Program-made: the position numbers and the translations under genes
The notes under the pieces: model-generated
Told to the model about the DNA's origin: nothing
The model's database searches: none
The model's input: the letters and a program-made list of their open reading frames with translations, nothing else
Shown: piece by piece, positions 20,850-63,922 of the stretch
Layout of the letters: each line of letters opens with the position of its first letter
Numbering within the stretch: the stretch's first letter is position 1
NCBI RefSeq assembly: GCF_963921235.1
Contig: NC_086108.1
Location: 93,126,001-93,190,000 of the forward strand
Origin: Mobula hypostoma
Taxonomy: Eukaryota
Direction of reading: 5' to 3'
Length of the DNA stretch: 64,000 nucleotides

Positions 20850-22362
20850 TGAATTGAATTGAAATGAATTGACTTTACTTCTTACATCCTTCCTATACAT
20901 GAGGAATAAAAATCTTTAGGTTACGTCTCCATCTAAATGTGCAATGTGAAATTTATAGTAACTTATAACAAATAGTATGTACAACAGGACGGTCAATGTA
21001 ATATAGAAATACAATTGTAACAGGATGAGTTAATCAGACTGATGGCCTGGTGGAAGAAGCTGTCCCGGAGCCTGTTGGTCCTGGCTTTTATGCTGCGGTA
21101 CCGTTTCCCGGATGGTAGCAGCTGAAACTGTTTGTGATTGGGGCGACTCAGGTCCCCAGTGTTCCTTCGGGCCCCTTTTACACACCTGTCTTTGTAAATC
21201 TCCTGAAAAGTGGGAAGTTCACAGCTACACTGGGCTGTCCACACCACTCTCTGCAGAGCCCTGCCATTGAAGGAAGGACTGTTCCTGTACCAGTCAGTGA
21301 TGCAGCCAGTCAAGTCGCTCTGAGTTATGCCCCTGTAGAAAGTTCTTAGGATTTGGGGGTCCATACCAAACTTCTTCAACCATCTGAGGTGAAAGAGGCG
21401 CTGTTGTGCCTTTTACACTACACAGCCAGTATGTACAGACCACGTGAGATCCTCAGCGATGTTTATGCCGAGGAACTTAAAACTGTTCACCCTCTCAACC
21501 CCAGAACCATTGATGTCAATAGGGGTTAGCCAGTCTTCATTCCTCCTATAGTCCACAACAAGCTCCTTTGTTTTTGCAACATTGAGGGAGAGATTGTCTT
21601 CTTGACACCACTGTGTCAGGGTGATGACTTCTTCACTATAGGCTGTCTCATTATTATTTGAGATTAGGCCAATCAGTGTAATGCCATCAGCAAATTTAAT
21701 TAGCAGATTGGAGCTGTGGATGGCGACACAGTCATGGGTATACAGAGCGTAAAGGCGGGGGCTTAGGACACAGCCCTGAGGGGCACCTGTGTTGAGGCTC
21801 AGAGGGGCAGAGGTGAGGGAGCCCACTCTTACCAGCTGTTGGTGATCTGACAGGAAGTCCAGGATCCAGCTGCACAAGGCAGGGTCAAGGCCAAGGTCTC
21901 TGTGCTTCTTGTTGAGCCCGGAGGGAATTTTGGTGTTGAATGCTGAACTATAGTCCAAGAACAACATTCTCACATAGGCATCCTTTTTCTCCAGATGTGT
22001 AAGGACAGTATGTAGAGCTGTGACGACTGCATCTTCTGTTGTTTGGTTGTGTCAGCAGGTGAATTGTACAGGGTCCAGTTTGGGTGGCAGCATGCTGCAG
22101 ATGTAATGCCAGACTAGTCTCTCAAAGCACTTACTTATTATTGAAGTGAGGGCGACAGGATGTCAGTCGTTCAGGCATGTTACCTTGGTCTTTTTAGGCA
22201 CAGGCACAATGGTGGATGTTTTGAAGCAGGAGAGCACTCTACACTGGGAGAGGGAGAGATTAAAAATGTCTGTAAACACACCTGTCAGTTGTGTCGCACA
22301 CATCCTGAGTACCCACCCTGGGATGCCGCCCGGTCCCGCAGCCTTGTGACTGTCCACCTGTT
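20850..22362 (-). mobile_element. Rex1/Babar LINE RT 3' part, pseudogenised
   Basis: [38 protein letters not shown] (YADD decayed), KTKELVVDYRR, PSGKRYRSIKARTNRL; (TTCAA)n tail. Confidence 0.92.
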
Positions 22363-22627: not shown

Positions 22628-25210
22628 CCAGCTCTCATCCGTGCCAGGTCTTTACCATCCCCTCCGACCTTCAACTGTCGGAGGCAGAACACTCTGTCCT
22701 CAGTAAGGGCCTCACCTTCGTCCCCCTTTGCCCACACCTCAGCGAATTCCGTGTTCGCCACGATGCGGAATTCTTCTTCCGCCGTCTCCGAGCCTACTTC
22801 TTCAGCAAGGACTCTTCCACCCGCACCGATGACCCCTTCTCCTGTCTTCAACCCTCCTCTTCTTCATGGACACCCCGCTCTGGTCTTCTTCCTGCTCTGG
22901 ATCTCTTTATTGCTAACTGCCAACGGGACATCAACCGTCTCGACTTCACCGCACCTTGTTCCAATTCCAACCTCACTCCTTCGGAACGCTCTGCTCTCCA
23001 CTCCCTCCACACTAATCCTAACCTTATTATTAAACCCGCCGATAAGGGGGGCGCTGTTGTAGTCTGGCGTACTGACCTCTACCTTGCCAAGACACAGTGA
23101 CAACTCGCGGATACTTCCTCTTATTTACCCCTCGATCGTGACCCCACTAAGGAGCACCAGGCCATTGTCTCCCACACCATCACCGACTTTATCCACTCAG
23201 GGGATCTCCCATCCACTGCTACCGACCTTATAGTTCCCACACCTCGCACTTCCCGTTTCTACCTCCTACCCAAGATCCACAAACCTGCCTGTCCTGGCAG
23301 ACCTATTGTCTCAGCTTGCTCCTGCCCCACCGAACTAGTTTCTGCATACCTCAACACGGTTTTATCCCCCCTTGTTCAATCCCTTCCTACCTATGTTCGT
23401 GACACTTCTCACGCTCTTAAACTTTTCGATGATTTTAAGTTCCCTGGCCCCCACCGCTTTATTTTCACCATGAATGTCCAGTCCCTATATACTTCCGTCC
23501 CCCATCAGGAAGGTCTCAAAGCTCTCCGCTTCTTTTTGGATTCCAGACCCAATCAGTTCCCTTCTACCACCACTCTGCTCCGTCTAGCGGAATTAGTCCT
23601 TACTCTTAATAATTTCTCCTTTGGCTCCTCCCACTTCCTCCAAACTAAAGGTGTAGCTATGGGCACCCATATGGGTCCTAGCTATGCCTGCCTTTTTGTT
23701 GGCTTTGTGGAACAATCTATGTTCCGTGCCTATTCTGGTATCTGTCCCCCACTTTTCCTTCGCTACATCAACGACTGCATTGGCGCTGCTTCCTGCACGC
23801 ATGCTGAACTCATTGACTTTATTAACTTTGCCTCCAACTTTCACTCTGCCCTCAAGTTTACCTGGTCCATTTCCGACACCTCCCTCCCCTTTCTAGATCT
23901 TTCTGTCTCTGTCTCTGGAGACAGCTTATCCACTGATGTCTACTATAAGCCTACTGACTCTCACAGCTATCTGAACTATTCCTCTTCTCACCCTGTCTCT
24001 TGCAAAAATGCCATCCCCTTCTCGCAATTCCTCCATCTCCGCCACATCTGCTCTCAGGATGAGGCTTTTCATTTCAGGACAAGGGAGGTGTCCTCCTTTT
24101 TTAAAGAAAGGGGCTTCCCTTCCTCCACTATCAACTCTGCTCTCAAATGCATCTCCCCCATTTCACATACATCTGCTCTCACTCCATCCTCCCGCCACCC
24201 CACTAGGAATAGGGTTCCCCTGGTCCTCACCTACCACCCCACCAGCCTCCGGGTCCAACATATTATTCTCCGTAACTTCTGCCACCTCCAACGGGATCCC
24301 ACCACTAAGCACATCTTTCCCTCCCTACCTCTCTGCTTTCTGCAGGGATCGCTCCCTACGCAACTCCCTTGTCCATTCGTCCCCCCCATCCCTCCCCACT
24401 GATCTCCCTCCTGGCACTTATCCTTGTAAGTGGAACAAGTGCTACACATGCCCTTACACTTCCTCCCTTACCACCATTCAGGGCCCCAGACAGTCCTTCC
24501 AGGTGAGGCGACACTTCACCTGTGAGTCGGCTGGGGTGATATACTACATCCGGTGCTCCCGATGTGGTCTTCTATATATTGGCGAGACCCGACGCAGACT
24601 GGGAGACCGCTTTGCTGAACACCTACCTCTGTCCGCCAGAAAAAGCAGGATCTCCCAGTGGCCACACATTTCAATTCCACGTCCCATTCCCATTCTGACA
24701 TGTCTATCCACGGCCTCCTCTACTGTAAAGATGAAGCCACACTCAGGTTGGAGGAACAACACCTTATATTCCGTCTGGGTAGCCTCCAACTTGATGGCAT
24801 GAACATTGACTTCTCTAACTTCCGCTAATGCCCCACCTCCCCCTCGTACCCCATCTGTTATTTATTTTTATACACACATTCTTTCTCTCACTCTCCTTTT
24901 TCTCCCTCTGTCCCTCTGACTATACCACTTGCCCATCCTCTGGGTTCCCCGCCCCCTTGTCTTTCTCCCCGGACCTCCTGTCCCATGATCCTCTCATATC
25001 CCTTTTGCCAATCACCTGTCCAGCTCTTGGCTCCATCCCTCCCCCTCCTGTCTTCTCCTATCATTTTGGATCTCCCCCTCCCCCTCTCAAATCTCTTACT
25101 AACTCTTCCTTCAGTTAGTCCTGACGAAGGGTCTCAGCCTGAAACGTCGACTGTACCTCTTCCTAGAGATGCTGCCTGGCCTGCTGCGTTCACCAGCAAC
25201 TTTGATGTGT
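22628..25210 (+). mobile_element. Penelope-like retroelement (RT plus GIY-YIG endonuclease), near-complete but inactivated
   Basis: LSKGLTFVP, KPADKGGAVV, GVAMGTHMGPSYA, RYINDC (YIDD decayed), VIYYIRCSRCGLLYIGETRRRLGDRFAEH; TGA at 23098 and frameshifts; flanked by GTAGCATA direct repeats (22620-22627, 25211-25218) inside an old CR1 fragment. Confidence 0.95.
25117..25152 (+). ncRNA. Minimal type I hammerhead ribozyme motif in the Penelope terminal repeat
   Basis: AGTC-CTGACGA-A-GGGT-CTCA-GCCT-GAAAC-GTC-GACT: both catalytic boxes, stem I AGTC/GACT, stem II, palindromic ACGT stem III, GUC cleavage triplet. Confidence 0.8.
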
Positions 25211-27169: not shown

Positions 27170-28016
27170 ATAGATGGATATACTTTATTGATCCCGAGGG
27201 AAATTGGGTTTCGATACAGCTGCACCAACCAAGAACAGAGTACAAACATAGCAATACAAAACCACAAACAATCAAATAATAATATGTAAACCATGCCAGA
27301 CGGAAGTAAGTCCAGCACCAGCCCGTTGGCCCAGGGTATCCGACCCTCCAAGGGAGGAGCTGCAAAGTTTGATGGCCACAGGCAGGAATGACTTCCCATG
27401 ATGCTCAGTGCTGCATTCCGGTGGAATGAGTCTCTGGCTGAATGTGCTCCTGTGCCCAATGGTGTAAATGATGCTACACGCCAACGTCAGGTTGGCAGAG
27501 GGAGGGATGTACACAACAACCACAATTGCACGCGAGATATCCCTTGGCAAATAATATGGCCGGAGTCCAACAGCAATAAGTTCAATATCTGGGCTACAAA
27601 CACGTTCCTTGATAGTAATATGACCAGGATTGCACCATCTGTTGTTAACCAGAACAGCGAGCCCCCCTCCTTTATGCTTACCGCTCTCAGTGCGCTTCCA
27701 GTCAGCCCGAACGGTCTGGAAGCCCTCTATAGAAATGTTTTGGTTGGATATGTCCTCGTGCAGCCACATTTCAGTAAGACACATAACATTGCACTCCCGA
27801 AATGTTCTCTGACTCCTGACAAACGTCGTCAACTCGTCCATTTTATTACCCCGCGATCTCACATTGCCCATAATGAGAGAGGGAAGACACGGCTTATAAC
27901 TCCTCTTCTCCATAAGTCTCTGTTGTCTCGACCTGGTCCTCTTCCCTCACATTTTTGATCCCCCTCTGCATCCTCTGTGTGTTTTCCTCCAGATTTCAGC
28001 CGGGGTGTCTGCCGCT
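27170..28016 (-). mobile_element. Internally deleted Rex1/Babar LINE (endonuclease N-terminus fused to 3' end)
   Basis: ORF 27272-27913: GNVRS..NKMDEL..CLTEMWL..KGGGLAVLVNNRWC..VYIPPSAN then directly HRSTFSQRLIPP..SFLPVAIKL; GGGATCAATAAAGT 3' end. Confidence 0.85.
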
Positions 28017-28030
28017 GAATGTCCTGATAC

Positions 28031-29131
28031 TGTCATAAGCGGGTGGCTGGGAACGGGCCCAAGTGCAAGACACAGACACTGAAGTACTAGGGACAGGACT
28101 AGGATACAGGGTGAGGGCTAGGACATGGACACGAAAACCGGGAACCCGGAACAGGACAGGACAAGAGAGCTAGGAGCCAGGGCTTGGACTCCGAGCCAAA
28201 GACTGGACAAGGACCCAGAACCTGGATCTTGCCTCTGGCTTGGACCCCAGAACTAGGCAAAGACGTGACTTGGCTGGCAGGCAGGACGAGGCTGGAGTCG
28301 TCAGGCTCGAGACTTGAGGTGAGGCCAGGGGCTTGAGGCGAGGCCGGAGACCAGAGGCTTGAGGATTGGGGTCTTGAAGCTTGGCTTGAGGGGAAGCTCG
28401 GCTAGAGACTTGAGGTGAGGCTCGTCTAGAGGCTTGAGGCGAGGCGAGGCTAGAGACTTGAGGTGAGGCGAGGCTAGAGACTTGGGGTCTTGAAGTTCCT
28501 CCTGGGCAGGGCGCGGTACTCCACCCGATGGAGACAAGGGACAGGAAGGGACAGAACCAACTGCAGGGTAACGGCAATCTGGCCTGACTTACCCGACGGA
28601 GGCAAGGGACAGGAAGGGACAGGACCCACCGCAGGATAATGGCAATCTGGCCTGGCTTACCCGATGGAGGCAAGGGACAGGAAGGGACAGGACCAACTGT
28701 AGGGTAATGGCAATTTGGGGTGACTTACCCAACAGAGGCAAGGGGCAGGAAGGGAGATAGGCACAGGGTGGCTCCAAGACAAGACTTCAGGCGAGACGAG
28801 GCAAGAGTTACCAGCAAGACCAGGCAAGGCTTCAGGCAGTGCAAGGCCAGACAAGAACTTCAGGCGAGGTGAGAGTTACTGGCAAGACAAGGCTGGGCTC
28901 CAGGAGAGGAAACAGAAGGCAGGGGAAGGGATACGAGGAGTAAGGATAAGAACAGTTTAGCAGCCACGCCCTGGTCTCTGGAGGTATTTATGCAGCCAGG
29001 CCCAAAGAGAATCAGCTGCCTCAATTAGTGCCAAACAGGAACAGAAACAGGGTAGACAAGAAAACCTGGAGCAAGGGTCGAGGGACCGGACCATGAACCG
29101 GAATGCGGACTTCACGGATCGGACCATGACA
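28031..29131 (-). mobile_element. Solo LTR (1101 bp) with internal tandem repeats
   Basis: TGTCAT...ATGACA termini; perfect 5-bp TSD GATAC; minus-strand CATAAATA TATA-like box near 28985; 68-bp and about 24-bp arrays. Confidence 0.88.
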
Positions 29132-45375: not shown

Positions 45376-45867
45376 AGAAACCCTCCCTCACTCTTTATAG
45401 GGGAATAACCACTGGGCACTCCAACTTCAGATTGTGACATTTCCCACTGGATCTTTTCATTCAGGAAGCATTTCACAGTATGGGAAAGGCTAGGGAGTTA
45501 TAGTTATGAGCTGCTTTCTTGGTAATGAAATACATTGTGGGACTTAGCTGCTCTCACTTAAATACTGTGAGGCTTAGCCGAGGGAAACAAAGAGGATATT
45601 TTTTCACTTAATAATGAAGTCAGTAACTGGCAAAGTGGGTGTAAGATAATTGGGAGAAGGATGAAAGGATGAAAGGGGAGTTGACTATACATATTTCAAT
45701 TGAGTGGTGGGGATCTGATTTAAAAAATTATCTTTTGTTGTCACATGTGCATTGAAACATTGAAATATACAATGAAATGCATTGTTTGCTCAACGACCAA
45801 TGTAGTCCAAAATTGTGCTGGGAGAAGCCCGCAAGAGTTGCATGTTTGTGGCACCAACATAGTAAAC

Positions 45868-46140
45868 TCACACAATCATAGTATGCCAACAAACATAGCA
45901 TACCCTAACCAACATAGTATGCCAAACCAACATAGCATGACTACACCAAAATAGTATGCCCACACCAACATAGAATGCCCACAAGCATAGCATGCCTATG
46001 CCAAAATAGTATGCCATCACCAACACATCAGGCCTACACCAACATAGCATGCCCACACCAAAATAGCATGCCCACACCAACATAGTATGCCCACACCAAA
46101 ACTGCATGCCTACATAGCATGCCCAAACCAACCTAACATT
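45868..46140. repeat. Minisatellite, about 19-20-bp unit CACACCAACATAG(C/T)ATGCC
   Basis: About 13 degenerate head-to-tail units directly following a minus-strand V-SINE fragment (45720-45865). Confidence 0.9.
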
Positions 46141-47114
46141 CCCCACTACCTGAAAAGATATTGGAGGCCGAAGTACTCAAATGCACAAGCACTTGGCAAA
46201 CCATAAACTTCAAAGTGATGGAGTCAGTGAGTTTACCTGTGGCAAAATGATCAGCCAAATCCACTCCTGTGCTGTGATTTTTTTATTCTTTATTGAAGTC
46301 TGTTAGCCCTGCAGAACAGAGTCAAATTGGGCAGTTACATCTTAGTTTATTGCAAATCTTGATATTATTACAAGCACCATTGATAGCCCTAGTGACTCAC
46401 AAAATGGTTGGTCAGAATAAAATTCAGAATTTAATTTACTGTCCCTGACATATGACATGAAATATGTTGTCTTGTGGCATGAGTACAGTGCAAGACATAA
46501 AAATCTATAAATTAAAAGATAAATAAATAGTCCGAAGAAAAGATTAATGAGGTAGTCTTCAGGGGTCCATGGGCCATTCAGAAATCTGAAGGCAGAGGGG
46601 AAGAGCCCATTCTTAAAATGTTGAGTGTGGCTCTTGTACCTCCTCCCTCATGGTAGGAATGAGAAGAGGTCAGGTCCTGGATGGTGAGGACTTTTGGTTA
46701 TGCATGCCGCAGTCTTGAGGCATCACCTCCTGAAGATGTCCTCAGTGGTGGGGAAGGTTGTGTCTGTGATGCAGATGGCTCAGTCTACAACCCTCTGCAT
46801 TTTCTTATGATCCTGTGCATCGCAGCATCCATACCAAGTGGTGATGCAGCCATTCAGAATGTTTTCCGGCATGAATGAGCCTCCATCGGTCTGGGTTGAC
46901 CATTGATGGTGCATCCTAGCTGTCTACATACGCAAGCCTGGCCAATACGATATGGAGAGCAAGCTGTTACCCACGTAGCAAGCTCCCCATCTCCACGCAT
47001 CTGACAAACCCAAAGGAACGGCAGAGACCGATATATTTTGGTATCAGCAGCTTCACAGGAGTTGCCAGTCAGCATTGAACTCAACGCAGGATGACCTTGA
47101 CTCTGGACTTCACC

Positions 47115-47975
47115 TGTGACGAGAATACACATAAAATTAAGATGTTTGCTGGCCTAGGTTAGCATCAGTGACATCAGCAAGTGGTCTGCCACCTGCCCTC
47201 AGGGGAAGGAGAGATAAGGAACAATGGAGCAGCGTCTGGAGATGTGTAATGAAGGGACGTGGGAGAGAGAGCTGTCTGGAGCAGCTCCCCCTTTGAACCC
47301 TGAACTGTTTGAAGTGATGGACAGGCGATACCCCAGCAGGGGGATAAAAAGGGACCGGTTTGCTAAGGCAGGACACACGCCACCCGAGGTAACGAGACCC
47401 TGGAAGCGGTACGCTTCTCACGAGTCGGTGGGAAGTACCAGACAACGGCCAGGGTGGAAGGGTACGATCAGCGGGAACCCGGTGTGTGTCCGCCCTTGCC
47501 TGGGTGCCGGGTTCACTGCAGAGGAGCAACCGCATCTGGAGGAGGGGTCACAGTCGGTGACCTCAGGTGACATCACCAAGGACCTGCCCAAAAAGCTGCT
47601 TGTGAGCCATATCGTCGGTCTGTGAGTGAAGCCATGTCTGAATGATCAGTTGTTCCTGTTCTCTCTCTCTCTTCCCCCACGTTGTCCATCGCCATGGCAA
47701 TGATTACTGCGAACTGAACTACTAAACTGGACTGAACTTTGAGTCACTTTGAAATTTGGTCATTTACCCCTAGACAACGATAGAGCTTGATTGATGCTGT
47801 TATCTTAATTCTGTGCACATGTGTGGTTATCATTGCTGAACTGTTGCATCTATTATCCTTTCAATTACTGTGTTGCTTGTTTCTTTAATAAAACTTTCTT
47901 AGTTCTAGTAATCCAGATTCCAACTGAGTGATCCATTTCTGCTGATTTGGCAACCCAGTTACGGGGTACGTAACA
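47115..47975 (+). repeat. 5' LTR (861 bp)
   Basis: TGTGACG...CGTAACA; GATAAAAA TATA-like motif near 47343; AATAAA near 47887. Confidence 0.97.
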
Positions 47976-47979
47976 TAAG

Positions 47980-48005
47980 TAGGGTTCTCGTCCGCGATTT
48001 TGAAC
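47980..48005 (+). promoter_or_regulatory. Primer-binding site, degenerate tRNA-Pro-like
   Basis: TAGGGTTCTCGTCCGCGATTTTGAAC just after the 5' LTR, compared with canonical TGGGGGCTCGTCCGGGAT. Confidence 0.7.
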
Positions 48006-48074
48006 GCTAAATTTGGGACGGAGTAAATTGATTGGGTTAAAATTCCCGAAAGAAAGAAAAGACAAACAGCAGAA

Positions 48075-50972
48075 ATGGAGGCTGAGGAATTTATAAAGGC
48101 GCCGACCTTTGAGGCATTAGAGGATGCCAGGAAATCGGAATTGATAGCTGTGGCCAAACGGTTGAATCTTGCTAAGGTGAAGTCGACAATGAGGAGAGAG
48201 GAGATACACAGAGCTATTGTAGAGTACTATGTATCTAAAGGTGTGTTTCCCCATGGTGAGCTGGGGGTGGTGTCTATTGAAAAACCTGCTGGAGGCGCGG
48301 TACAGATACAGCTTGAAAAACTGAGACTCGAGCACGAGTTCCGGGTACGGCAGTTAGAACACAAAGAGAAGCAGTTAGAAAGGCAGGAGAGAGAGAAAGA
48401 GGTAGAAAGGCAAGAGAGAGAAAAACAGTTGGAGAGAGAAGAGAGAGAGAGGGACAGACAGTTGGAGAGAGAGGAGAAACAGAGGAAAAGGGAATTTGAG
48501 CTGGAGAAGTTAAAGATAAGGGCCGAGCAGGGGCTCGTGCCGAACCAAGGTGGAGGGTTCCGGGCGACCCAGGACATTAGGCTGGTTCCCCCATTTGACG
48601 ATACCGACGTGGATCGGTACTTTCTCCACTTCGAAAAAGTGGCTATAAGTCAGGACTGGCCGAGGGATAAGTGGGTTGTCTTACTTCAGAGTGTACTGAA
48701 AGGGAAAGCCCAAGAAGCTTACTCCGCTTTATCCGCGGAAGATGCCCAAAGGTATGAGGTGGTGAAAGAGGCCATCCTCAGGATTTATGAGTTGGTCCCG
48801 GAGGCATACCGGCAGAGGTTCCGAAATGCGAGGAAGCAGTGGGACCGCACGTATTTGGAGTTTGCCCGTGAGATGCAGACATATTGTGAGCGTTGGTGCG
48901 CCTCAAAGGGGGTAGAGGGGGATTATGACAGACTGCTACAACTGATCCTGATTGAGCAGTTTAAAGGTTGTGTCCCTGAGGGTATGAGACCCTACCTCGA
49001 TGAGAAAGAGGCAGCCACGTTAGCCGCAACTGCTAAGTTAGCGGATGAGTATGCGTTGACGCATAAAATGAAGTTTGCCCCGAGTAAAGGCTACCAGAAG
49101 GGTAGTCAGGACGGCGGGGAGAGTCCGCCGGAAAAGTCAGAAAGTAAGCCGGGGACTAGTGAGAAGGATAAGGTAGACCGGGAGCAGTCTGGTAGGAAGT
49201 CTCCTGGGGTCGTCTGTTATAATTGTGGGAAAGCCGGACACTTTGCGTCCAGGTGCTTTGCCCCAAAGAAGGAGACGGGAAAAGGAAAAACGGAAATGTT
49301 GAATGGCTGTATTGAGCTGTTAAGCGAACCGCTAGGGAAGGACAGGTCTGAAAAAGTCCAGGAAGGGCGCGAGAGGTTTATCTCGGCCGGATTGGTGTCA
49401 GTGAAGGAGAGGTTAAAACCAGTTCCAGTGCGGATCTGGAGAGACACGGGAGCGTGTCAGTCCCTAATACTGAAGAGTGTATTAGAGTTTAGCTCAGAGA
49501 CCCATACTGGGGAGGTAGAGGTCAAAGGTGTTGGGGAAGGGACAGAGTCAGTCCCTTTGCACCAGATATACTTACAAAGCAACCTGGTCTCTGGACTAGT
49601 CACGATCGGGGTGAGGTCCGAATTACCGATGAAAGACGTGGAAGTCTTGCTCGGTAATGACCTCGCCGGAGGAATCGTGTTCCCAGTCGTGAGATTGACA
49701 GGTCAGCCTGCCAGCATTGAGGCCCCGCCCATGGACTCACAGGTTCATCACGGGCCCGCGATAGTGAATTTAGCTGAAACGTTTCTGCCAACCTTGTATG
49801 AGACGGGGTGTAGTGAGACAAGAGGTAGTGAGGGAGCTGGGACAGACGTAGCAGTAGCCAGGAAAGAATTTGTGCAGACGCGGGAGCGAGACGAGGGGCT
49901 GATGGTTTTGGCAGAGACTGCTCTCTCTGACACAGCCTTGACAAGGGAACTAGTAGGCTATTGTGCGGAGGAGGAAGTGCTAAGGAAGAAAGGGAAATCA
50001 AGTACAGTATCCGCAGATGAGGAGTGGGGGGTGGTGCAAAAGAGTTATGGGGATGAGGTTTTTAACATGGCCCACGAGGTACCCCCTGGTGGACATTTTG
50101 TGGTGCTGGAGGAAACAGTTGGTGGAATCATGAAAGAGATTTACTGGCTGCCCAGGGGGAAAAATGTTATTGATCATGACCGACGCGAACTGAGACGGTC
50201 ACCGGCTTTTGATATGCTAACAAACCTAGTCGGTGTTAGCATGGAAATCAACGAAGCTAGGGGCCCCCTGATAAGAGGAAAAAACCATTTTGAAAAGATT
50301 AGGATGGGATCGGTCAGATGGGAGAAGGCTATTGTTTTGGCCAGGTCTACTGATAAGGTCTCTCCCTTAATCCCCGAACAAAGCGAATCTTTAGAAGAAG
50401 TAATTAAACGACTCGCACCCGTGTGTTTGATTGTCCCGAGGCAATGCAAAGAACTGGGACGTTGGGTGATTGTTGTTACAATAGGGCAGCCTAGTAAACA
50501 ACACCCATATTTAATGAGTAATTCAGTGACTAAAGGGCATATGAACACAGAGGTGTGTATTGGCAATTTAATACGGCTGTCTGAAGCCAGCTTGATAGTG
50601 AACCTTGAAAAAAATGAATTCGGCCACACAAGGGTCACTTACCTGGGAATTGTGGTGACACAGGGGCAGCTGGCAGTGATACAAGCTACAGTGCAGGCTA
50701 TCGCTGACCTCCCAACCCCGACAGACAAGAGGGCCCTCAGAAGGCTCTTGGAGATGGTGGGGTACTACAGGAAGTTTTGCAATAACTCTGCGGTCAATAC
50801 CCGTCCCCCTCCTACTAAGCCCTTGCGAGAGAAAACTGAGTCAGAATGGGACGACCCTTGTTATTGTGGTCCGGGACAAAACCAAATGAGAGGTTACATT
50901 GGTCGCAATTCATCAGTGTTTTTGGCCACTATGAAGTTTGCTGAGTTGGAGCCTGGTCTAAGGGATTATTAA
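48075..50972 (+). CDS. 965-aa Gag-protease polyprotein with degenerate IN/RT/RNase H tail
   Basis: Uninterrupted ORF; E/R/K coiled coil; capsid/SCAN-like PEAYRQRFR..LILIEQF; CX2CX4HX4C at 49215-49256; RDTGA at about 49440 and LLGND; AHEVPPGGH..YWLP; KQHPY; CIGNL; GYYRKF. Confidence 0.9.
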   Translation: MEAEEFIKAPTFEALEDARKSELIAVAKRLNLAKVKSTMRREEIHRAIVEYYVSKGVFPHGELGVVSIEKPAGGAVQIQLEKLRLEHEFRVRQLEHKEKQLERQEREKEVERQEREKQLEREERERDRQLEREEKQRKREFELEKLKIRAEQGLVPNQGGGFRATQDIRLVPPFDDTDVDRYFLHFEKVAISQDWPRDKWVVLLQSVLKGKAQEAYSALSAEDAQRYEVVKEAILRIYELVPEAYRQRFRNARKQWDRTYLEFAREMQTYCERWCASKGVEGDYDRLLQLILIEQFKGCVPEGMRPYLDEKEAATLAATAKLADEYALTHKMKFAPSKGYQKGSQDGGESPPEKSESKPGTSEKDKVDREQSGRKSPGVVCYNCGKAGHFASRCFAPKKETGKGKTEMLNGCIELLSEPLGKDRSEKVQEGRERFISAGLVSVKERLKPVPVRIWRDTGACQSLILKSVLEFSSETHTGEVEVKGVGEGTESVPLHQIYLQSNLVSGLVTIGVRSELPMKDVEVLLGNDLAGGIVFPVVRLTGQPASIEAPPMDSQVHHGPAIVNLAETFLPTLYETGCSETRGSEGAGTDVAVARKEFVQTRERDEGLMVLAETALSDTALTRELVGYCAEEEVLRKKGKSSTVSADEEWGVVQKSYGDEVFNMAHEVPPGGHFVVLEETVGGIMKEIYWLPRGKNVIDHDRRELRRSPAFDMLTNLVGVSMEINEARGPLIRGKNHFEKIRMGSVRWEKAIVLARSTDKVSPLIPEQSESLEEVIKRLAPVCLIVPRQCKELGRWVIVVTIGQPSKQHPYLMSNSVTKGHMNTEVCIGNLIRLSEASLIVNLEKNEFGHTRVTYLGIVVTQGQLAVIQATVQAIADLPTPTDKRALRRLLEMVGYYRKFCNNSAVNTRPPPTKPLREKTESEWDDPCYCGPGQNQMRGYIGRNSSVFLATMKFAELEPGLRDY

Positions 50973-51133
50973 TAACACGTGTAAAAGGAACAGAGAATGC
51001 GATGACTGTCTATCAAGGTGTTGACAGCTTCAAACTCGCTGTGTTAGCCAAATAGCTGATAAAGATGTATATTTGTGTATGTATCAAATAATGTATTCAT
51101 GTTTGTAATGTTTACCTCCCGGTAAAAATCCTT

Positions 51134-51145
51134 AAAGGGGGGAAG
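51134..51145 (+). promoter_or_regulatory. Polypurine tract
   Basis: AAAGGGGGGAAG immediately before the 3' LTR. Confidence 0.9.
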
Positions 51146-52005
51146 TGTGACGAGAATACACATAAAATTAAGATGTTTGCTGGCCTAGGTTAGCATCAGT
51201 GACATCAGCAGTTGGTCTGCCACCTGCCCTCAGGGGAAGGAGAGATAAGGAACAATGGAGCAGCGTCTGGAGATGTGTAATGAAGGGACGTGGGAGAGAG
51301 AGCAGTCTGGAGCAGCTCCCCCTTTGAACCCTGAACTGTTTGAAGTGATGGACAGGCGATACCCCAGCAGGGGATAAAAAGGGACTGGTTTGCTAAGGCA
51401 GGACACACGCCACCCGAGGTAACGAGACCCTGGAAGCGGTACGCTTCTCATGAGTCGGTGGGAAGTACCAGACAACGGCCAGGGTGGAAGAGTACGATCA
51501 GCGGGAACCCGGTGTGTGTCTGCCCTTGCCTGGGTGCCGGGTTCACTGCAGAGGAGCGACCGCATCTGGAGGAGGGGTCACAGTCGGTGACCTCAGGTGA
51601 CATTACCAAGGACCTGCCCAAAAAGCTGCTTGTGAGCCATATCGTCGGGCTGTGAGTGAAGCCATGTCTGAATGATCAGTTGTTCCTGTTCTCTCTCTCT
51701 CTTCCCCCACGTTGTCCATTGCCATGGCAACGATTACTGCGAACTGAACTACTAAACTGGACTGAACTTTGAGTCACTTTGAAATTTGGTCATTTACCCC
51801 TAGACAACGATAGAGCTTGATTGATGCTGTTATCTTAATTCTGTGCACATGTGTGGTTATCATTGCTGAACTGTTGCATTTATTATCCTTTCGATTACTG
51901 TGTTGCTTGTTTCTTTAATAAAACTTTCTTAGTTCTAGTAATCCAGACTCCAACTGAGTGATCCATTTCTGCTGGTTTGGCAACCCAGTTACGGGGTACG
52001 TAACA
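51146..52005 (+). repeat. 3' LTR (860 bp)
   Basis: Direct repeat of 47115-47975; hand count 16 substitutions and 1 indel. Confidence 0.97.
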
Positions 52006-52954
52006 CACCTGAAGCCTTCCCTATGAGTGGGTATAGCCACAAGGCAGTGGGGGTTTGAGATAGAGCTCTCCTTCTCCTGAGCTGCCAACAATGTCTGATG
52101 AGCCCCATCTCCCCAAAGCGACTGGTTTTAAGGTGCCAGTAACCCACTTTTGCCCCTTCTCCTGGAAATAGAAACGGTTCTGCGGGACTTAGTGAAGAGC
52201 AGGACCTGGACTTGGTTGCATTTAATAGATAGTGGGAGTTTATCACCATTACCACCCCTGGTTAAAACAACCTTAAGAAACCACCTCCAGCGTACATCGA
52301 CATAAATATGTACGAGTATATGGTGACATACCTTATCTAATCAAACTCCGGATGAAGTTGAGCTGCTGATATGTCTTCTTTGCAATTGCATCAATGTGTT
52401 GGGTCCAGGGCAGAACCTCGGAGACGCTGGGCACTGAGGAACTTGAAGCCGTCCCCCCCAATGAGGACTGGTGTATGTTCTCATAACTTCTCAACGTAGA
52501 TCACCGCTGCATTTTCTCTGCCAGTGTGGCTCTTCTGCAACAAATTCCAGGGTAGAACAATGTCTAAAATCAGCAGCAACAAGTCTAGCACCAGACTTGC
52601 TTAAGTGGAGTATAATGTATCCAGTCTTCGATGCTAGATATCTTTGTGACCTTTGGATATGTAGGACAACATGGTGGTACAGCTGGCTGGGCTGTTGCTT
52701 TACAACACCTGCAAATTGAGTTCAGCCCTGACCATTGGTGCTGTCTGAGTGGAGTTTATATGTTCTCTGTGTGATTGCACAGAAGACCAAAAGACCGTAA
52801 GACCATAATGCACATGAGCAAATTAGGCTATTCGGTCCATCGAGTCTGCTGTGCCATTCTATCATTCCTGATTTATTATCCCCCCCATCCCCATTCTCCT
52901 GCCTTTCCCCCATAACATTTGACACCCTTACTAATCAAGAACCTATCAACCTCT

Positions 52955-62039: not shown

Positions 62040-63922
62040 AAACATCTGTAGTGCAGAATATCCTCACTGGTATGGAAACACCAATGCTTAAGAATGGAAA
62101 TGCCTACAAAAAAGTGGTGGATATGGTGGATATGGCCTAGTCCATCACAGGAAAGACCCTCCCCACCATTGAACAGATCTACAAGGTGCCCTGCCATGAG
62201 AAAGTAGCATCCATCATCAAGGACTCTTCCCCCCACCATCCAAGTCATGCTCTCTTCTCATTGCTGCCACTGGGAAGGTGGCACCGAAGATTTATATCCC
62301 ACACTACCAGGGTCAGGAACAGTTATTGCCCTTTAATCATCAGGCTCCTGAACCAGTGTGAATAACTTCACTCACCTTAACATTCCTCCACAAGCTATGG
62401 ACTCACTTTCAAGGATTCTACATCATTTATTCTTAGTATTATTTATTTATTTATTAATCGTTACATTCGGACACGTCTCATTAGCAGGGCAGCAGTATGG
62501 TCGCATTGTTTATTCCAGGGACCAGCTGATTGCGCTTATGCCGGCCGGTTTAGCAAACAGAGCGGCGGACACCCCTGCTGAAATCTGGAGGAAAACACAC
62601 AAAGGATGCAGAAGGGGATCAAAAAGGTGAGGAAAGAGGACCAGGTCGAGACAACAGAGACTAATGGAGAAGAGGAGTTCTCCACTTGGACTACATGTGG
62701 ACATACCTGACCAAAACTTTTCCATGGAGGGCTTCCAGATCATTCGGGCTGACCGGAAGTGCACTGAGAGTGGTAAGCGTAAAGGAGTTGGGGGCTCGCT
62801 GTTCTGGTTAACAATGGATGGTGCAATCCTGGTCATATTACGATCAAGGAACGTGTTTGTAGCCCGGATATTGAACTTTTTGCTGTTGGACTTTGGCCAT
62901 ATTCCACCAAGATACAACACTGGGCGTCATCGGAGGTCATTCCTGCCTGTGGCCATCGAACTTTGCAGCTCCTCCCGTGGAGGGTCAGACACCCTGAGCC
63001 AATAGGCTGGTCCTGGACTTATTTCCATCTGGCATAGTTTGCATATTGTTGTTTGATTGTTTGTGGTTTTTGTATTTCTATATTTATGCTCTATTCTTGG
63101 TTGGCGCAGCTGTGACAAAACTCAATTACCCTCGGGATCAATAACATATGTCTATGTCTATGTCTAATAGTTTTTTTGTATTTGTCCAGTTTGTCTTCAA
63201 AATTCAAAGTATATTTATTATCAAAGTATGTATAGATTATACAACCTTGAGATTTGTCTGCTTACAGACAGCCACAAAGCAAGAAACCCAGAAGAACCCA
63301 ATTTAAAAAGGCCAACACCCAATACACAGAGAGAGAAAGCAAAAGCAAATCATGCAAACAGTAAAGCAACAGCATTCAGAATGAACTTAAGTCCATAAAC
63401 CCGAAGTGGGGCAAATCATAGCTCGGAGAAGCCGAAGCAAGTCACTGCCTCAGTGCCAAGGAGAGCAGGGTAAAAGTCGTGGAGCAGAACTGGCCCTGAC
63501 ACTCTGCCTCCTCAGTCCAACTGGCCCAGCGTTTCAATTGACAAAGCACCGGGTAGTCCCTGCTCTCGGACCTGGTCCCCGTTGCAGCAATATGTTCTGG
63601 ACTGGGCCCCGCATTCCGGTCCATACTTGACCAAATCGGTGCAGCGTTTAAGTGGATCCAAGCTCACTCCTGGTTTAGGTGGATGGGCTCCAAAATCACT
63701 CCAACTTTCCTCCACTCCGCTCGCTCCAACTCCATCTCAAACATGCCTCGACCTCGCTCTGCTCCATCTCACACATTGGCTGTTTGTCAGTCTTTCTGTG
63801 TAGTTTTTCATTGATTCTATTGTATTTCGTTGTTCCACTGTGATTGCCTGCAAGAAAGTGAATCTCATGGTATATGGTAGCACTTATGTATTTTGAAACT
63901 AAATCTACTTTGAATTTTGAAG
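62040..63922 (+). mobile_element. Degraded Rex1/Babar 3' fragment hosting two insertions (62460-63166, 63200-63770)
   Basis: Similar to 42905-43340; UTR resumes near 63167 and 63770 and ends TTTGAATTTTGAA. Confidence 0.7.
62460..63166 (+). mobile_element. Internally deleted Rex1/Babar LINE, second copy
   Basis: Same 5' region and 3' end as 27170-28016 (MEKRS..FQIIRADRKCTESGKRKG..RRSFLPVAIELCSSS); (TATGTC)n tail. Confidence 0.85.

Follow-up and report, generated by a model that had tools for sequence, protein, structure and literature searches.

A dead but open pol tail in a Gmr1-like retrotransposon family of Mobula rays: evidence for selection on the reading frame with relaxed residues

Background

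Why does a pol region that has lost its catalytic motifs stay open over some 370 codons? The question is raised by a locus in the window, that is, the whole 64,000-nucleotide stretch of Mobula hypostoma DNA analysed here, where an earlier note, made from the letters alone, had pointed to such a remnant and had proposed that continued translation is selected or, alternatively, that the tail has taken on a new structural function. The case is of interest in that it separates selection on the frame from selection on the protein, which are usually confounded in retroelements.

Structure of the element and its surroundings

The element at 47115-52005 is a young, complete LTR insertion of the Gmr1-like type and comes from a multi-copy Mobula family; all of its features described below lie on the + strand. 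It is flanked by a 4-bp target-site duplication, CACC (47111-47114 and 52006-52009), and its 5' LTR (47115-47975, TGT...ACA) is identical to the 3' LTR (51146-52005, with an AATAAA at 51917) at 844 of 860 aligned bases (98%). The 5' LTR is followed by a putative primer-binding site (47980-47997) that resembles, with mismatches, a tRNA-Pro one, and the 3' LTR is preceded by a polypurine tract (51134-51145). An ATG-initiated ORF of 133 codons within the 5' LTR (47224-47625, +) has no Pfam match and is broken in the 3' LTR copy by a 1-nt difference.

A single ORF of 965 aa (48075-50972) encodes Gag, protease and a degenerate pol tail. A Pfam search of this ORF recovered a SCAN-like capsid domain (48798-49067; PF02023, E 4.6e-13) and a CCHC zinc knuckle (49212-49256; PF00098, E 1.5e-5) in the front part, and no domain was detectable in the tail. 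Profile-to-DNA alignment places an aspartic protease at 49383-49700, with the DTG motif (49443-49451) and all 29 of 29 conserved columns kept. The earlier note was correct in describing the tail as open, with 49860-50969 comprising 370 codons and no in-frame stop, but the tail is the end of the Gag-protease-tail ORF and not an ORF of its own. Within Gag, a Glu/Arg-rich coiled-coil repeat (48330-48520, +) varies in unit number among copies and is the site of many contig joints.

Beyond the protease, the four missing blocks that had been surmised are borne out, namely the integrase core (289 aa), the RT fingers/palm (128 aa), the segment after the YxDD motif (18 aa) and the RNase H core (86 aa). 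The integrase N-terminal remnant (49809-50180) keeps its two histidines, has lost the CxxC at the junction, and carries net changes of -5 codons near 50028 and +1 near 50106. The junction of the integrase core/C-terminal deletion (50172-50190) leads into the integrase end and the IN-RT linker (50190-50519; net -7 codons near 50217, +1 near 50470), and the RT fingers/palm deletion has its junction at 50517-50522; both junctions are shared with P0175, a Mobula protein discussed below. The YxDD position follows at 50556-50567, which reads TGTATTGGCAAT and translates to CIGN, as had been stated, and lies just before the 18-codon deletion near 50570. The RT thumb/connection remnant (50574-50861; profile alignment, 125 bits; +1 codon near 50808) matches the Ty3 RT structure 4ol8 (E 3e-6), the best among solved structures, and such matches to the tail fall on RT thumb regions only. 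After the 86-aa deletion comes the RNase H C-terminal remnant (50862-50936), in which the TDH motif reads IGR, and finally the old C-terminus in shifted frames (50938-51024). A single-sequence AlphaFold prediction of the tail was uninformative (pLDDT 30.5).

That CIGN occupies the YxDD position is confirmed by alignment to the YIDD of intact relatives through the upstream context, with an 18-codon gap between CIGN and the following RLSEA. Predicted Mobula proteins read YIDD (P0337), YIGD (P0175) and CIGD (P0329, P0331) at this site, and CIGN is found in 14 proteins, that is, the window and 13 others; the series YIDD, YIGD, CIGD, CIGN thus fixes both the position and the order of loss. All four catalytic-motif residues that the deletions spared (three in YxDD and the RNase H Asp of TDH, at about 50898-50906) are changed, for which a hand estimate of 0.34^4, about 0.013, is post hoc and weak.

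Other features of the window include a weak RT match followed by a weak GIY-YIG match (23101-24802, +), which represent a degenerate Penelope-like element, and a further RT piece on the minus strand (21413-22051). Inverted repeat arms of 86-94% identity lie about 35 kb apart (27258-28016 and 62561-63070), and tandem repeats are present with a 68-nt unit at 28523-28755 and with a 19-nt unit at 45834-46133, about 1 kb upstream of the LTR element.

A multi-copy family amplified in deleted form

Relatives of the tail include many predicted proteins of Mobula hypostoma and M. birostris, about 88-94% identical and encoded on different chromosomes, and the same junctions recur in many of them across both species. 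The element evidently belongs to a multi-copy family that was amplified in its deleted form, and a domesticated single-copy gene, considered as a candidate, was ruled out by the copy number and the young LTR pair. The flagged stretch is also contained in contigs of three organisms, at a very high depth that does not amount to a copy number, and the presumed-RNA run X6 covers all 30 bins, which is no proof of transcription.

In Gmr1-like Ty3/gypsy elements the integrase lies upstream of RT and RNase H. The remnants in the window (integrase N-terminus, integrase end, RT, thumb, RNase H) are collinear with intact relatives, and the best protein matches are SCAN-bearing proteins with integrase before RT; among intact SCAN-Gag/protease/integrase/RT/RNase H relatives the nearest named ones are sawfish and stingray proteins. 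By domain order and SCAN capsid the element can be classified as Gmr1-like Ty3/gypsy. LTRs, a PBS-like stretch (its identity presumed), a polypurine tract and a short target-site duplication are all present, and it has no intact RT YxDD, RNase H or integrase DDE, as an autonomous element would. A TR-GAG element, defined by Gag only with no pol remnants, is likewise a poor description of an element with a protease and a 370-codon pol remnant.

P0175, which is 60% identical, has the same integrase, RT and RNase H junctions, still contains the 18 residues that follow the motif, and has YIGD at the motif itself; it is best described as an intermediate in a stepwise loss of pol. Two other Gmr1-like proteins show in-frame integrase gaps relative to P0163, namely P0290 of Hypanus sabinus (73, 67 and 12 aa) and P0294 of Mobula hypostoma (133 and 52 aa), and may represent independent families with compressed pol or introns of the gene models. 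In RefSeq, several element-derived ORFs (P0002, P0019, P0024, P0336, P0337) bear the names of host-gene isoforms (MACC1, UBE2G2, PPM1Lb, a TMEM38A-like channel and HSPBAP1), which reflects insertions in genes or mis-joined models.

Reading frame and stop codons in the tail

A profile of 25 intact relatives, taken by score from 50 candidates, was matched to the DNA without any penalty for a frameshift at a junction, and scored 419 as against 33-52 for three null strands. As the null strands gave pieces of up to 19.5 bits, pieces below 20 bits rest on collinearity and on P0175. The segments from 49383 to 50936 all lie in the frame of the ORF, bar one 6-codon piece in frame +2 (50267-50284, 12 bits), which appears only at a lower junction cost and was rejected as noise. 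The last three segments lie in frames +1 (50938-50958), +2 (50966-50998) and +1 (51004-51021), which indicates that the method can detect frameshifts and agrees with the shifted old C-terminus that had been described. Three frameshifts within the 90 nt after 50936 have moved the stop by only 52 nt, from 51022-51024 to 50970-50972.

Frame-keeping itself holds as the earlier note had claimed, but its count of four deletions does not: nine net indels are fixed in the family over 49860-50936 (in codons -5, +1, -289, -7, +1, -128, -18, +1 and -86), all nine in frame, for which chance gives (1/3)^9 = 5e-5. A gap of -12 codons and a polymorphic one of -7 lie just upstream of the flagged stretch. Some 15-20 small integrase deletions, implied by pairwise alignment to a distant intact Pol, were discarded, as P0175 shows one 289-aa deletion. 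About 34% of the scorable tail residues changed on the lineage of the window, and under two mutation spectra 6.1-8.5 nonsense changes would be expected over 370 codons where none is seen (P 0.0002-0.002); the other five frames of 49860-50969 contain 30, 26, 15, 9 and 22 stops.

Could the open frame be mere luck in one successful lineage, with template switching at in-frame microhomologies and no selection on frame at all? Two R-M/I motifs meet at the RT junction and two Arg-containing motifs at the IN junction, so that these two large junctions, on repeated in-frame dipeptides, may be in frame by mechanism, and it is just such an open-tailed family that would catch a reader's attention. Even if the three large junctions are granted as free, however, (1/3)^6 = 1.4e-3 remains, to be multiplied by a probability of no stop of at most 0.002, and short indels that are not multiples of three are common in the non-coding part of the element and in the last 90 nt. 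We regard this explanation as very improbable.

Among the contig indels listed (12 of 23), seven fall within 590 nt after the ORF, none of them a multiple of three, in 3-4 runs; four lie in gag, each in a single contig of one run; and none falls in 49860-50900. The remaining one, found in five contigs of run X9 (about 8% of depth), is an insertion of +4 at 50902, which is 70 nt short of the stop. Further in-frame deletions are common to several copies, one of 4 aa in 10 of 22 proteins, one of 6 aa in 8 of 22 and, just upstream of the tail, one of 9 aa in 10 of 22, and an 18-codon deletion of P0332 corresponds to a contig joint of net -54 nt that runs X1 and X6 show at 49911-49967; X9 has a similar joint. 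These continuing deletions suggest that erosion of the tail is in progress.

Sister copies had been proposed as a check, and breaks do occur in them: the 25 family proteins compared are predicted gene products, a set that favours long ORFs, and of these 11 extend to the native end, 10 are broken within the tail and four stop short of it. The 10 of 21 that reach the tail and break there are matched by breaks in gag and protease at about the same frequency (15 of the 25 are broken or late-starting upstream), which points to ordinary decay after insertion; individual copies evidently decay in both gag/protease and tail once inserted. Two pairs share a break: P0004 and P0005 have the same end after residue 862, which may be an inherited truncation, and P0006 and P0334 break after about residue 736, at an A-run. 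Overall there is good evidence, as far as sequence comparison can provide it, that the frame and the freedom from stops in the tail are under selection, the frame being lost only in the last 90 nt or so before the old end.

Amino-acid constraint in the tail, Gag and protease

Residue-level constraint was assessed against the Mobula intact-type proteins P0007 and P0337, proxies whose parentage is unproven, together with 30 intact references, with columns called conserved at >=90% of references. Of the conserved columns, 24 of 70 are changed in the tail and none of the 45 in capsid/protease (P 2e-6). Within the tail, conserved and variable columns have changed alike (24/70 vs 11/34, P 1.0), whereas in capsid/protease the changes are confined to variable columns (6/24 vs 0/45, P 0.001). 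Relative-rate counts are 48:9 for the tail and 8:12 for capsid/protease. In seven matched copies the diversity of the tail is about 0.05, as against 0.015-0.029 in gag/protease, and shared and singleton variants stand at 87:127 for the tail as compared with 12:57 for capsid/protease (P 0.0004, with unequal copy sets). Those variants listed (40 of 368) include 33 coding ones, whose synonymous/nonsynonymous counts of 3/5 in gag-protease and 8/17 after the protease, with a neutral expectation of 0.29, do not discriminate, as they are too few and have private changes mixed in. There is thus good evidence that the residues of the tail are relaxed, amino acids changing equally at conserved and variable columns, and Gag and protease are evidently under purifying constraint while the enzymes after the protease are lost.

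The thumb is the one block that might tell a different story, namely that the tail peptide acts in cis, by binding its own RNA or by docking a helper Pol through the thumb or the integrase N-terminal remnant, or has acquired a new structural role. A fusion protein of this general kind works in cis in the mouse IAP 1-delta-1 element, according to the available text of a review (PMC6466679), and the thumb is the best-kept block of the tail: 28 of its 35 conserved columns are kept as against 18 of 35 in the rest (P 0.022), its identity to P0175 is 69% as against 43-64% in other blocks, and its diversity over 12 copies is 0.089 as against 0.117-0.132. Yet 7/35 of its conserved columns have changed, far above the 0/45 of capsid/protease (P 0.002) and close to the 3/11 of its own variable columns, the difference in identity to P0175 between thumb and rest has a P of 0.10, and in the seven matched copies its diversity of 0.054 equals that of the other tail blocks (0.050, 0.053) and is about twice that of the protease (0.022). 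With the Pfam search of the tail also negative, a cis-acting or structural tail seems unlikely, and of the two proposals with which we started selection for continued translation is the one that finds support.

A proposed translated spacer

Together, these results suggest that being translated, rather than the protein that is made, is what counts for the tail. The reading that we favour, and consider probable though by no means assured, is that the family is semi-autonomous, that translation to near the old end is selected, and that the tail serves as a translated spacer whose residues hardly matter. The element would encode a Gag and a protease in one ORF, package itself with this Gag, and borrow RT, RNase H and integrase, visibly lost here, from a helper. 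The search for a helper yielded partial intact-type Mobula proteins only (P0007, P0337); in addition, 13 contigs of run X1 show an undeleted loose end at 49749.

A parent without a stop between gag and pol would leave its derivative with just one stop, close to the 3' LTR, and since the RNA is both mRNA and genome, variants with a stop far upstream would be lost from the replicating pool. Once such variants are purged, the tail could erode only through frame-keeping indels and missense changes. The route of loss would most likely be premature-stop (UPF1-type) decay, by analogy with the unspliced RNA of RSV, in which premature stops that are not followed by a stability element lead to Upf1-dependent decay, as stated in the available text of PMC2925335; a single-ORF element would presumably have no such protected stop after gag. 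An alternative route would be poorer co-translational capture by the element's own Gag. The 3' UTR is now about 0.95 kb, measured to the AATAAA at 51917, and would be about 2.2 kb if the stop came after the protease. The spacer model alone does not account for the 370 codons that remain, and the shared early breaks of P0004/P0005 and P0006/P0334, together with the X9 insertion of +4 at 50902, count against it.

Frame constraint with relaxed residues would fit equally well if Gag-protease needed a long polyprotein of any sequence for processing, turnover or co-assembly, and the full conservation of the protease is in keeping with this. The tail is still shrinking, however, through shared deletions of 4, 6, 9 and 18 aa, and plant semi-autonomous families with Gag and protease only are described in the accessible parts of PMC9744471 and PMC13570524; a requirement for protein length or tethering is therefore judged improbable.

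If premature-stop decay is the cause of the translated spacer, it would explain long, open but meaningless pol remnants in parasitic LTR families, and would warn against taking such ORFs for domesticated or neofunctional genes (the annotation places several of the copies within host gene models). The family would also offer a high-copy system in which to measure how costly a stop is at different distances from the 3' end. More tentatively, and with rather less confidence than the reading of this family itself, we suggest that single-ORF LTR elements that lose their enzymes must keep a translated junk spacer up to the ancestral stop and thereby escape RNA surveillance; the ray family would then be a stepwise record of a process that recurs independently, as P0290 and P0294 suggest.

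Comparison with known systems

SCAN-type Gag has been linked to Gmr1-like Ty3/gypsy elements in the available text of PMC3424704. The ray family resembles these elements in its SCAN-like capsid, CCHC knuckle, protease, integrase before RT/RNase H and single ORF, and differs from their intact members in that all three enzymes after the protease are gutted. In the text available to us, a mobulid genome preprint gives LTR content only in bulk. In the openly accessible literature that was searched, we found no account of the ray family, or of a dead pol tail that is kept in frame with relaxed residues.

Retention of Gag and protease with no working RT or integrase is shared with the wheat element RLG_Sabrina_SA (PMC9744471), and TR-GAG and sugar beet families (PMC13570524) likewise keep Gag and protease with some decayed pol pieces. 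As far as the accessible parts of these papers go, pol remnants in the plant semi-autonomous elements are absent or patchy and none is described as one in-frame fused ORF; the terms 'reading frame' and 'in-frame' have no occurrence in the main text of PMC13570524 in the form available. In defective flavivirus genomes (PMC8052367, available portion) fit deletions are nearly always frame-keeping, as in the ray family, but the downstream proteins there are functional, whereas the protein downstream in the ray tail is dead and drifting.

The family also works much like mouse IAP 1-delta-1, in which, according to the accessible text of the review cited above, an internal deletion has created a gag-pol fusion that works in cis. 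Both are non-autonomous, have a single gag-pol fusion ORF and need enzymes in trans. For the mouse element the translation product is reported to matter in cis; the ray family, described here from its sequence, belongs to Gypsy/Gmr1 and not to the ERVs. IAP 1-delta-1 arose by one 1.9-kb deletion that also removed part of gag; the ray family retains gag and protease in full, and its pol has nine separate indels and a turnover of about one-third of its residues.
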